Positions 1,112-3,823 of a stretch of DNA of 64,000 nucleotides are shown here, one piece after another. The notes under the pieces are model-generated. The model was not told the origin of the DNA, searched no databases, and saw only the letters and a program-made list of their open reading frames with translations. A program made the translations under genes and the position numbers. Each line of letters opens with the position of its first letter. The stretch's first letter is position 1. The stretch lies in NCBI GenBank assembly GCA_963717145.1, contig OY970325.1, positions 608,001 through 672,000 on the forward strand, written 5' to 3'. This DNA is from an uncultured Armatimonadetes bacterium (GTDB taxonomy: Bacteria > Armatimonadota > UBA5829 > DTJY01).

Positions 1112-1228
1112 GGAGATCACCTCCTTTCCGTACAGGACGATCGCACATGTGTTCGATTCCAACACCAGGTAACTGCGATCGTCTTCTACTGGTTATGACA
1201 CGCGGGGTCCGGAAAAGTTGCGGGGGGA

Positions 1229-1307
1229 GGGAGTATGGGAGTATGGGAGTGTGGGGGAGTGGGAGAGCAGGATTCCCCCATTCTCCCATACCCCCACACT
1301 CCCATAC
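1229..1307. repeat. Inverted element built from 8-bp units (GGAGTATG)n / (CATACTCC-like)n
   Basis: GAGTATGG GAGTATGG GAGTGTGG ... TTCTCCCA TACCCCCA CACTCCCA TAC immediately after the lysS stop. Confidence 0.75.
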
Positions 1308-1308
1308 G

Positions 1309-2793
1309 CTATTTCTCCGGCTTGAGCTGCGGGAAGAGGATCACGTCGCGGATCGACGCGGAATCGGTGAACAGCATAATCAGCCGGTCGATGCCGACTC
1401 CGAGCCCGCCGGTCGGAGGCATCCCGTACTCCAACGCCCGCAGGAAGTCCTCGTCCATCGGGTGAGCCTCTTCGTCGCCGGACGCGCGCATCGCGCCCTG
1501 AGCCACGAACCGCTCGCGCTGGTCGATCGGATCGTTGATCTCAGAGAACGCGTTGCCCATCTCCTGCCCGATGATGTAGGGCTCGAACCGCCGAGTGAGC
1601 GACGGATCGTCCTGACGCTTCTTGGCGAGCGGCGAGATCTCGAGCGGGAAATCGGTGATGAACGTCGGCTGAATCAGGTTCGGCTGCATGAACCGCTCGT
1701 GGATCTTGTCGATGATTCCGCCGATCGTCGTCTCCTTCTCCATGTCGAGTCCGAGGCGTTCGCCGGCCGCCTTGGCGCTCTCCACCGATCGAAACTCCGC
1801 TGGTTCGATGCCCGAATACTGCTTGATCCCCTCCAGGAGCGGAAGGCGCTTCCACGGTGGGGTAAGGTCGACGGTCTGTCCCTGGTACGTGAGCGTGAGC
1901 CCGCCGTGGATACGCTCGCACACGAAGCAGAACAGGCGCTCCACCAGGTCCATGATGTCTTCGAGGTTCGCGTATGCCTGGTAAAGCTCCATCATCGTGA
2001 ACTCGGGATTGTGGCGGGTCGAGATGCCCTCGTTCCGGAAGACGCGGCCCATCTCGTAGACCTTGTCGAATCCGCCGACGATCAGCCGCTTGAGGTAAAG
2101 CTCAAGCGAGATCCTGAGGTGGAAAGTATGATCGAGCGCGTTGTGATACGTCAGGAACGGTCTCGCCGCCGCGCCGCCCGCGATCGCCTGCAGGACCGGC
2201 GTCTCGACCTCGATGAAATCCTCGGCGTTCAGGAACTCGCGGATCGCGTTGAGTATCCGGGTGCGCCTCAGCATCGTCTCCCTGACCTCGGGGTGCACGA
2301 TCAGATCGAGGTACCGCTGCCGATACCGCTGCTCGACATCGTGGAGGGTGTACCACTCCTCCTCGCCCTTCTGCTTGCCGATGGGGAGTGGGCGCAGTGA
2401 CTTTGCCAGGAACTCGAACTCTTCCGCGAAGACGGTGATCTCGCCGGTCCGCGTCTTGCCGACTTTGCCACGAACGCCGATGAAGTCGCCGACATCCATG
2501 TCGCGAACAAGCGCGTACTTGTCTTCGCCGATCGCATCGGTCTTGAGGTAGACCTGCATACGGGCGCCCGAGTCCTGGAGATGGGCGAACGACGCCTTGC
2601 CCATTGCACGGAACGATACTACTCGTCCTGCAATCGAGACGCTTTGCCCGTCAAGCTCGTCAGCGCGGTCGACAATCTCCTGGGCGGTGTGAGTCCGCTC
2701 GTAGCGCTCGATGGCAAACGGGTCGATGCCCTGCTCCCGCATTTGCCGGAGTTTCTCAAGCCGATGCTCGATCAGTTCGCTCTCTTCGTTCAC
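1309..2793 (-). CDS. lysS: Lysine--tRNA ligase (class II)
   Basis: OB-fold N-terminus, RYRQRYLDL, FRNEG, EFTMMELY, YGMPPTGGLGVGIDR. Confidence 0.98.
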   Translation of the reverse strand: MNEESELIEHRLEKLRQMREQGIDPFAIERYERTHTAQEIVDRADELDGQSVSIAGRVVSFRAMGKASFAHLQDSGARMQVYLKTDAIGEDKYALVRDMDVGDFIGVRGKVGKTRTGEITVFAEEFEFLAKSLRPLPIGKQKGEEEWYTLHDVEQRYRQRYLDLIVHPEVRETMLRRTRILNAIREFLNAEDFIEVETPVLQAIAGGAAARPFLTYHNALDHTFHLRISLELYLKRLIVGGFDKVYEMGRVFRNEGISTRHNPEFTMMELYQAYANLEDIMDLVERLFCFVCERIHGGLTLTYQGQTVDLTPPWKRLPLLEGIKQYSGIEPAEFRSVESAKAAGERLGLDMEKETTIGGIIDKIHERFMQPNLIQPTFITDFPLEISPLAKKRQDDPSLTRRFEPYIIGQEMGNAFSEINDPIDQRERFVAQGAMRASGDEEAHPMDEDFLRALEYGMPPTGGLGVGIDRLIMLFTDSASIRDVILFPQLKPEK

Positions 2794-3396: not shown

Positions 3397-3489
3397 CCCT
3401 CAACCGCTCAATAATATAAGCACTGATTGCCCCCACTTCTTCCTGAGCCACCAGTGCTTAGAGTGCGCGCCGAGTCGTTTTTCGAAGGG

Positions 3490-3518
3490 ATTCTACCACA
3501 GAGACCGCCGTTTGTCAA
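3490..3518 (-). promoter_or_regulatory. sigma70-type promoter of greA-lysS
   Basis: TTGACA-17 bp-TAGAAT with extended -10 TG on the minus strand. Confidence 0.75.
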
Positions 3519-3614
3519 ACATGTTTTTATGGGTAAACGCTGAAGATTGACACAGTCTGCAGCTTGTACACGTGATTGGGGCATGGTCCTCTGTGGGGGT
3601 GAGAAGCCACAAAT

Positions 3615-3789
3615 GATGAAGGGGTCCGCTCGCGCGGACCCCACATTACAGGTGAACTGCCTCGAGGGATCAGTTCATGACCCGAAGGCTAAAACCTAGC
3701 CCTCAGCGTCACCTCGTTGACTATTCTGCATGTAGCCACCACCTCCTCTAAAGGATCGCCTATGGCGTCGCCCCGCATCGCGGAACGTA
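3615..3789 (-). ncRNA. Candidate structured small RNA containing an SD-led 11-codon ORF
   Basis: Own consensus promoter, several hairpins, terminal GC stem with GCGA loop followed by TTCATCATTT; no long ORF. Confidence 0.55.
3696..3731 (-). CDS. Putative 11-aa micropeptide MQNSQRGDAEG
   Basis: AGGAGGT SD 9 nt before ATG; TAG stop lies within a hairpin. Confidence 0.4.
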   Translation of the reverse strand: MQNSQRGDAEG

Positions 3790-3794
3790 CTCAT

Positions 3795-3823
3795 ATTGTA
3801 CCAGAGAGCAGGGGAAGTGTCAA
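3795..3823 (-). promoter_or_regulatory. sigma70-type promoter for the small RNA/micropeptide unit
   Basis: TTGACA-17 bp-TACAAT, with TG extension. Confidence 0.75.

Follow-up and report, generated by a model that had tools for sequence, protein, structure and literature searches.

The window, by which we mean the whole 64,000-nucleotide stretch analysed here, comes from an uncultured Armatimonadetes bacterium (contig OY970325.1, positions 608,001 to 672,000), and all positions below are numbered within it. On its minus strand, at 3823-3611, lies a self-contained unit consisting of a near-consensus promoter, a 12-bp Shine-Dalgarno (SD) sequence, an open reading frame (ORF) of 11 codons and a GC hairpin. 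Comparison across genomes indicates that this is a real, phylum-wide and uncatalogued RNA gene, usually present in one copy per genome. Our preferred reading, which we consider somewhat probable, is that positions ~3788-3612 (minus strand) are an independent gene for a structured mini-mRNA of ~180 nt that would be engaged by ribosomes, and for which translation, rather than the peptide, matters. The elements of the unit are listed here in the order in which they would be transcribed.

3795..3823, minus strand: sigma-70-type promoter, TTGACA-17-TACAAT, with 11 of 12 matches and a TG preceding the -10 element
3787-3769 and 3767-3757, minus strand: two small 5' hairpins, confined to the window's own family
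3738..3749, minus strand: SD1, an extended Shine-Dalgarno sequence with the purine tract AGAGGAGGTGGT, forming 12 bp with the 3' tail of 16S ribosomal RNA (rRNA), two of them G-U
3719..3737, minus strand: hairpin P1, GGCTA / TAGTC, 5 bp, with the ATG (3731-3729) in its loop
3696..3731, minus strand: mini-ORF of 11 codons, MQNSQRGDAEG, with its TAG at 3698-3696
3709..3715, minus strand: SD2, a second SD-like box, GAGGTGA, forming 7 Watson-Crick base pairs with the 16S tail
3677..3712, minus strand: long hairpin P2 around the stop codon, GTGAC-G-CTGAGGGCTA / TAGCCTTCGG-GTCAT, with 15 predicted pairs
3654..3676, minus strand: hairpin P3, GAACTG / CAGTTC, with the loop CCCTCG at 3668-3663
3648..3653, minus strand: anti-SD-like element ACCTGT, predicted by RNAalifold to mask the SD core GGAGGT (3746-3741)
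3611..3642, minus strand: terminal GC hairpin of 9 bp with a GCGA loop and a weak U tail, the presumed terminator

A preliminary description of this locus had placed on the minus strand the promoter, the SD, the ATG, the 11-codon frame and its TAG, followed by a stop-codon hairpin, a GAACTG/CAGTTC stem and a terminal hairpin with a GCGA loop, and all of these are present where it located them. Promoters of such quality number two in the window region, against 0.6 expected from shuffles, and transcription would start near 3788. The arms of the terminal hairpin, GGGGTCCGC-GCGA-GCGGACCCC, occupy 3642-3621. The T-rich tail that was ascribed to this hairpin did not hold up as well as the hairpin itself: it reads just TTCATCATTT, and a terminator scan of the window region did not call the structure (0 found).

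Distribution and relation to greA

A BLAST search of 60 relatives (E <= 3e-4) gave one match each in 33 of them, and the core shared by these matches is exactly the SD plus the ORF; the window's genome itself holds a single copy. A pattern scan of one genome per species returned at least 119 rows. Among the matches listed, 19 were true titled instances, 16 of them labelled Armatimonadota or Chthonomonad* and 3 merely 'bacterium', while the pattern matches listed from Dehalococcoidia, Actinomycetota and other phyla were coding repeats or chance. One copy, locus L093, is in a record titled Chthonomonas calidirosea. With the 67 loci added by a metagenome scan, the pooled set comprised 126 loci and 95 unique sequences, all collected with search patterns that carried no start- or stop-codon requirement. 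The preliminary description had looked to homologues that conserve the SD, the ORF and the stems, and the 95 unique copies supply them.

A covariance model built on the 77-position core matched 71 of 151 Armatimonadota genomes at E <= 0.01. These belong to many families, nearly all of the matched genomes have one match each, and 50 of the matches reach at least 28 bits. The same model gave no true match in 151 Chloroflexota genomes, where the sole match is an ordinary gene start, and none in 151 Actinomycetota genomes, where there was just a chance match in the seeded genome. The occurrence of similar units in other Terrabacteria, raised without confirmation in the preliminary description, was not borne out in the genomes searched from these two phyla. 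As judged from these searches, the RNA gene is conserved across Armatimonadota and is limited to that one phylum among the genomes searched. Comparisons at greater distance drew on a divergent set of 40 members from 16 other families.

The signals that would delimit a transcript are conserved together with the core. Of 92 homologues, 89 have a promoter with at least 10 of 12 matches at a constant distance, a GC-rich hairpin is found at the terminal place in 85 of 89, and the predicted RNAs have a median length of 187 nt. In the window, greA (3396-2908, minus strand) has its own promoter, TTGACA-17-TAGAAT at 3518-3490, with 11 of 12 matches. The promoter of the unit (3823-3795) is separate from this one and upstream of it, and the unit's hairpin ends at 3621, ahead of it. 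Of the 95 copies, 41 are followed on the same strand by greA-lysS, mostly 351-801 nt from the SD. A dedicated greA promoter that matches at least 10 of 12 positions and ends 81-139 nt ahead of the gene's start is present in 22 of these 41 loci, including the window. Of 30 loci from the phylum search, 6 have greA close by, and all 6 belong to the window's class; in none of the 24 others does it lie within 1.5 kb. Neighbours outside that class vary and are often convergent or unrelated. Because greA has its own conserved promoter and because the linkage is confined to the window's class, the unit is not a greA leader, which agrees with the stand-alone character that the preliminary description had deduced from the greA promoter.

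These observations bear directly on one alternative, according to which the unit is a cis-acting leader or attenuator in which translation of the mini-ORF sets read-through of the terminal hairpin into greA-lysS, much as in leader-peptide attenuators or GraL. The position of greA-lysS in 41 of 95 copies speaks for such a role, as does the terminal hairpin of the window's family, with its poor U tail that escaped the terminator scan, and mutually exclusive pairings do involve the ORF. As described in the parts of the GraL papers that we compared (PMC2836576, PMC6829880), GraL consists of short 40-60-nt transcripts from E. coli greA promoters, with no ORF, and two-thirds of greA transcripts end in the leader in this form. 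The unit would resemble GraL in being a small RNA that ends at a hairpin just upstream of greA; it differs in its separate promoter ~300 nt upstream of greA's own, in its length of ~180 nt with an ORF, and in a greA linkage found in one class only. The likeness to leader-peptide attenuators and upstream-ORF (uORF) motifs, in the passages compared (PMC8632094, PMC11109978), lies in a short ORF, its start and stop conserved, within a conserved structure, followed by a terminator-like hairpin, and in the expectation that ribosome position would choose between alternative pairings. Examples are the odc1 motif, with an 11-residue uORF, and the hflX-associated uORFC-6-1 motif (PMC8632094).

In those same passages, however, uORF motifs stand consistently ahead of one regulated gene, whereas the neighbours of the unit are varied or convergent. 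Unlike in attenuators, we found no competition between a terminator and an antiterminator, although alternative pairings of the ORF exist; none was found that overlaps the terminal hairpin, and regulatory codons do not form a run anywhere in the frame. Many genomes have a convergent or unrelated gene as the next one, and in all nine copies of family f18 a convergent protein gene seems, by eye, to end beside the terminal hairpin. Taken with the greA promoter in 22 of 41 loci and the lack of greA within 1.5 kb in the 24 loci outside the window's class, this makes a cis-acting leader quite improbable.

Three observations concern the surroundings of the unit. The greA leader itself is ~90 nt long (window 3397-3518, minus strand), and the recurrence of the greA promoter 81-139 nt before the start in 22 of 41 loci implies that leader length is conserved and that the leader may hold a regulatory element of its own. 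At the f18 locus L241, two divergent tRNA genes (1668-1821 of that locus) lie ~100 nt upstream of the RNA promoter. Just past the lysS stop, at window ~1186-1310 (minus strand), is a long imperfect inverted repeat with GGGAGT/ATGGG- and CCCAT/ACTCCC-type units, which could be a large hairpin, a terminator or a repeat element.

Reading frame and Shine-Dalgarno boxes

In all 95 unique copies the frame opens with an ATG located in a hairpin loop, contains exactly 33 sense nucleotides and closes with an in-frame stop, which is TAG in 63, TAA in 30 and TGA in 2. The spacers on either side are of several lengths, five for that between SD and ATG and seven for that between the stop and a downstream TTTTA, and all of these differ in 1-nt steps. 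Across the 95 copies the ATG sits 9-13 nt past the GGAGG core, which is normal SD spacing. All 40 divergent members likewise retain a short frame, which comprises 11 codons in 23 of them, 10 codons in 10, 12-13 codons in 6 and 18 codons in 1. The start codon is ATG in 37 of these members, TTG in 2 and a doubtful ATT in 1; TTG is used in 2 of the 3 members of family f29 that were read.

Where the frame of divergent members does change, it changes in threes or by compensating indels. Family f27 has one extra base in the junction, offset by the loss of one base 12 nt later. In families f6, f9, f15, f28 and f34 a gain of three bases (one codon) in the loop is accompanied by a loss of three through deletion of AAC. 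Family f16 has gained one or two codons and family f18 has lost one.

Codons 4-7 (S-Q-R-G) read AGT CAA CGA GGT with almost no synonymous change, which points to selection on the RNA itself. Residues 2, 3 and 8-11 vary, and distant families have QRR, LRG or QQG at the place of QRG. The combination of a constrained frame with scant amino-acid constraint is in keeping with an RNA that ribosomes must read, as opposed to one that supplies a needed peptide.

Were the unit a micropeptide gene, with the 11-residue M-x-x-S-Q-R-G-D/E-x-x-G as its functional product and RNA structure tuning synthesis or stability, the retention of start, length and stop in 95 of 95 copies, and of a short frame throughout the divergent set, would follow naturally, as would the normal SD spacing and the R-G pair seen in most families. 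Against this stands the near-complete lack of synonymous substitution in codons 4-7 when neighbouring proteins are 50-60% identical across the phylum, a comparison that argues for selection at the nucleotide rather than the amino-acid level. The free variation of residues 2, 3 and 8-11 tracks base-pairing needs, the QRG triplet itself is replaced in distant families, and the frame, at 10-13 residues, is hydrophilic with no conserved partner gene nearby. We judge a micropeptide gene very unlikely. Among the identities put forward in the preliminary description, a ribosome-binding or dual-function RNA gives the best fit and a micropeptide the weakest, given that amino acids vary and codons 4-7 are almost invariant.

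Constraint on nucleotides could also be expected of an untranslated structured small RNA (sRNA), in which the SD boxes, AUG and stop are structural or binding elements and the molecule works by base pairing, by protein binding or purely as a decoy for the 30S subunit. The nucleotide invariance of both GAGGTG boxes and of the junction is compatible with this idea, and so are a compact multi-helix fold with a covarying long-range helix (described below), a near-consensus promoter, as in housekeeping RNAs, and the weak translation, in the passages compared, of the small mRNA rreB (PMC5711450). It sits poorly with indels in the frame that come just as threes or compensating pairs, when single-base variation is seen in both flanking spacers. 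The in-frame stop position is occupied by any of the three stop codons, including TGA in cases where it weakens the stem, and in family f29 the ATG is replaced by TTG, another start codon. On this evidence an untranslated RNA appears unlikely.

The 3' end of 16S rRNA in the window's genome, read directly, is GGAUCACCUCCUUUCU. Within SD1, the search pattern prescribed GGAGGTGGTG for the pooled copies; it was already present in all 29 BLAST-found relatives. Divergent families carry GGAGGTGAT, and SD position 13 is G or A according to family, both of which pair with the same rRNA U. The complementarity of the SD in other families amounts to ~11-12 bp. The GAGGTG of SD2 was likewise fixed by the search pattern in the pooled copies and also occurs in the BLAST-found relatives. 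From the end of SD2 to the last sense codon there are 8 nt, matching the distance from GGAGGTG to the ATG; in most divergent families the distance is 7-8 nt, and exactly four codons follow the R-G pair. Because the spacing equals that between SD1 and the ATG, a terminating ribosome, with the stop codon in its A site, may be able to re-dock on SD2.

Elsewhere in the window, a 16-bp match to the 16S tail, GGAAAGGAGGTGATCT, lies at ~1114-1129 (minus strand), 2 nt before the ATG of gene 473-1111, an otherwise ordinary gene whose product has a prepilin-type N-terminus. The organism seems to use very long SD sequences routinely.

Folding and covariation

The stretch folds better than 200 of 200 shuffles (z = -4.1). 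Its 5' hairpins belong to the window's own family, and the other families begin ~9 nt ahead of the SD. In these hairpins 81.9% of cells are paired, against 28-56% with the partners slid, and 5 of the 6 pairs of the first hairpin have changed on both sides. The preliminary description had proposed that the 5' segment could instead pair with CCTGTAATGTGGGGT, over the terminal hairpin; because the 5' segment forms a covarying local hairpin, this alternative is unsupported. In the terminal hairpin, 3 pairs show both-side changes.

For P1, 99.1% of cells are paired, with a change from G-U to A-U in 41 of 85 distinct sequences and from U-A to A-U in 1, and family f18 has TGCC/GGCA around the ATG in place of P1. 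The stop codon falls within the hairpin 3706-3697 / 3691-3682, which is part of P2. The 15 predicted pairs of P2 are mostly invariant in the 12 window-family members, and in the 94-sequence core its cells are 92.4% paired, 3 of them bearing changes on both sides. The loop of P3, CCCTCG (3668-3663), is complementary to TGAGGG (3705-3700), which covers ORF codons 9-11. The RNAalifold consensus of the 12 window-family sequences is a three-way junction, closed by pairing of GGAGGT with ACCTGT (3653-3648). In 71 of 93 copies, the strongest internal complement to SD1 outperforms the mean of shuffled sequences.

Covariation is richest in the 3' domain. Within group B, which with 49 sequences is the largest, paired cells make up 96.7%, compared with 26-46% when partners are slid. 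Both-side changes affect 6 pairs, most of them located in an inserted hairpin or in a CUAYCC-GNRA-GGGUAG hairpin; the group's covariation score was reached by 0 of 500 shuffles. The last four ORF codons have a pairing partner 60-80 nt downstream that covaries with them from group to group, examples being AGCAGGCGG/TCGCCTGCT, CGGTGAGGG/CCCTCACCG, CCGTAGGGG/CCTCTACGG and CCGCGCG/CGCGCGG. Because MAFFT scatters gaps through the variable partner segment, we assessed this long-range helix by duplex energies. With its own partner the ORF 3' end gives -17.2 kcal/mol, compared with -12.9 kcal/mol for cross pairs, and its own partner is better in 43 of 49 cases.

For the downstream segment there is an about equally good partner (-17.3) in a third segment, formed by the loop and 3' arm of the GNRA hairpin, where compensating changes are visible by eye in loci L015, L174, L016, L012 and L182. 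The end of the ORF also pairs locally with TTTTAGCC, forming the stop hairpin. The RNA so appears to have at least two mutually exclusive folds, with the 3' end of the ORF as the pivot. We also considered the conserved CCGCC of the group-B terminator arm as an antiterminator of the SD region and rejected it, as by eye it shows no correlation with P1 variants.

Two further observations relate to the origin of the 3' domain. Locus L162, a metagenome contig, seems to carry a tandem second TTTTAGCC ... GGTCATGAAC module downstream of the mini-ORF. The hairpin that is inserted before GGTCATGAA in group B resembles the TTTTAGCC ... GGTCATGAAC motif, and MAFFT aligned the two. This suggests that the RNA grew by internal duplication.

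Related RNAs and a proposed mode of action

At gathering thresholds Rfam 15 holds no family for the unit: the only match in the window is a tRNA elsewhere, and at 11 divergent-member loci nothing was found except neighbouring tRNAs. When matches up to E <= 10 were considered, the best below threshold were BjrC68 (17.1 bits, gathering 39) and, on the opposite strand, ftsZ-DE (20 bits, gathering 72.2), both of which we took as chance. BjrC68 is an sRNA of Bradyrhizobiaceae, the same bacterial family as rreB, and its match spans window 3610-3693 (minus strand), the last two hairpins only; the BjrC name is absent from the main text of PMC5711450, and a link between BjrC68 and rreB could not be made. 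A divergent 6S RNA, signal recognition particle (SRP) RNA or transfer-messenger RNA (tmRNA) was rejected, because Rfam models place all three elsewhere in the window's genome. In the literature searched there was no description of this RNA. A term look-up in the main text of structured-RNA surveys found no Armatimonadota, Chthonomonas or Fimbriimonas, and the matches shown for 'grea' (4 of 8) were 'greater' or 'greatly'.

The preliminary description could match the unit to no family, and for Rfam this is correct; a look-alike kind has nonetheless been described, the small mRNAs rreB and rreR (PMC5711450, Hahn et al., RNA Biol 2016/17), which we compared through passages of that paper. There, rreB is a free-standing mRNA of 165 nt from Bradyrhizobiaceae with a 14-codon ORF and a conserved fold. 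Its perfect complementarity to the 16S tail extends over 17 nt and runs into the GTG start, and only the first five bases of the site are left free. It binds the 30S subunit, is weakly translated and shows start-codon-dependent turnover, and its function is described as unknown; rreR, from Rhodobacterales, has 18 codons (PMC5711450). In the same passages we find several likenesses to the unit, which would likewise be a free-standing transcript (~180 nt here, 165 nt there) with a sigma-70-type promoter and a terminator, here recognised by sequence only. The complementarity to the 16S tail at the 5' end is unusually long, the fold partly masks the ribosome-binding site, and each clade conserves a tiny ORF, of 14 or 18 codons in the rre RNAs and mostly 11 in the unit. 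For both, genomic context is unconserved outside a clade.

The differences found in these passages concern mainly initiation. The unit forms 12 bp with two G-U pairs, compared with 16-17 nt of perfect complementarity in rre RNAs, for which at least 16 nt are required, and its ATG follows a normal spacer, whereas in rre RNAs the complementarity extends into the GTG's first base. Given the normal spacer, the ATG and a 12-bp match that includes two G-U pairs, initiation here would be expected to be efficient and not suppressed. SD2, a stop codon in a hairpin and a covarying two-state 3' domain are present here and are undescribed for rre RNAs in the passages compared. The peptides of rre RNAs are conserved within clades; in the Armatimonadota RNA, nucleotides are conserved instead. 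No sequence similarity between the two was seen, and none was tested for. By analogy, rreB and rreR are the closest known kind, although the unit falls outside the strict rre definition.

Dual-function sRNAs such as SgrS/SgrT, RNAIII/hld and SR1/SR1P have an ORF and a regulatory part that are largely separate, and their peptides are conserved as proteins. The unit is similar in that one short transcript would combine a conserved RNA structure with a small ORF, here predicted to be translated. It differs in that the ORF is itself the structured core and its amino acids are unconserved.

For the ribosome-engaged mini-mRNA that we favour, we propose the following course of events. In the resting fold, the anti-SD-like element would mask the SD core, a hairpin loop would contain the start codon and a hairpin stem the stop codon. 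Docking of a 30S subunit on the extended SD would open the fold, after which the ribosome would read the frame of ~11 codons. Once the stop codon reached the A site, SD2 would lie 8 nt upstream of the P-site codon. A ribosome positioned over the 3' end of the ORF would free the downstream segment to pair with the third segment, and the 3' domain would flip its state. The peptide is probably a by-product, and what is selected may be the RNA together with the act of translating it. Such an RNA would report or exploit ribosome engagement, as the passages compared propose for rre small mRNAs, and for the output of its switch, stability, a target in trans and a bound factor are candidates.

A more specific version, which we offer tentatively and at low confidence, is a housekeeping RNA switch operated by ribosomes. 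The RNA would be abundant, ~11 of its codons would be translated, and handover of the ribosome from SD1 to SD2 would flip the fold, allowing the RNA to sense or buffer, cell-wide, free initiation-competent ribosomes. An analogue of such a switch is 6S RNA, which is engaged and 'transcribed' by RNA polymerase.

Several points weigh against a ribosome-engaged mini-mRNA. Two members of family f13 (L263 and L273) have lost the canonical stop and lack SD2; their frames close at a TAG within the conserved TTTTAGCC, after 13 codons, or at a TGA within GGTCATGAA, after 18. Either these copies have degenerated or they reflect a different mode of use. Rigidity of the RNA core, as opposed to translation, could account in part for the fixed length of the ORF. 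Complementarity of at least 12 bp to the 16S tail occurs at 41 sites in the genome, so that a long SD is not special here. P1, P2 and the closing helix are almost invariant, for which reason covariation neither proves nor disproves them. The GGAGGT/ACCTGT pairs, too, are invariant, which leaves masking of the SD as a model prediction, and the internal complement of SD1 exceeds shuffled controls modestly (-13.3 versus -11.5 kcal/mol). For the second and third segments, the duplex comparison has low power (own -17.3 versus cross -16.4, own better in 31 of 49), and own-versus-cross controls do not remove relatedness. No alternative pairing was found that overlaps or competes with the terminal hairpin, and no switch output was found. 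No RNA sequencing run containing the stretch was found either: the one run that came up shares a fraction of 0.04 of the sequence words and is probably from DNA. Covariance-model matches of 20-27 bits are unreliable without inspection, because unrelated phyla yield chance matches of 21-30 bits. Sequence comparison establishes the unit, its conservation, the constraint on its reading frame, the constraint on its nucleotides and the covarying helices; transcription and transcript ends, ribosome binding, translation, re-docking and the switch with its output are what we infer.

If the proposed mode of action is correct, the design is an unusual one, in which a frame-constrained ORF with little amino-acid constraint is combined with two docking boxes at matching distances and a covarying two-state fold. 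The ATG, SD1, SD2 and the long-range helix provide handles for mutational analysis. For annotators it is worth noting that such units fit neither the category of plain sRNA nor that of plain small-protein gene. The unit would also be a second, independent and more richly structured example with which to approach the purpose of rre-type small mRNAs with an extended SD, and together with the rre RNAs it would hint at a widespread, uncharacterised class of ribosome-docking mini-mRNAs. For the Armatimonadota themselves, a single-copy RNA gene kept across much of the phylum is likely to have a central role.

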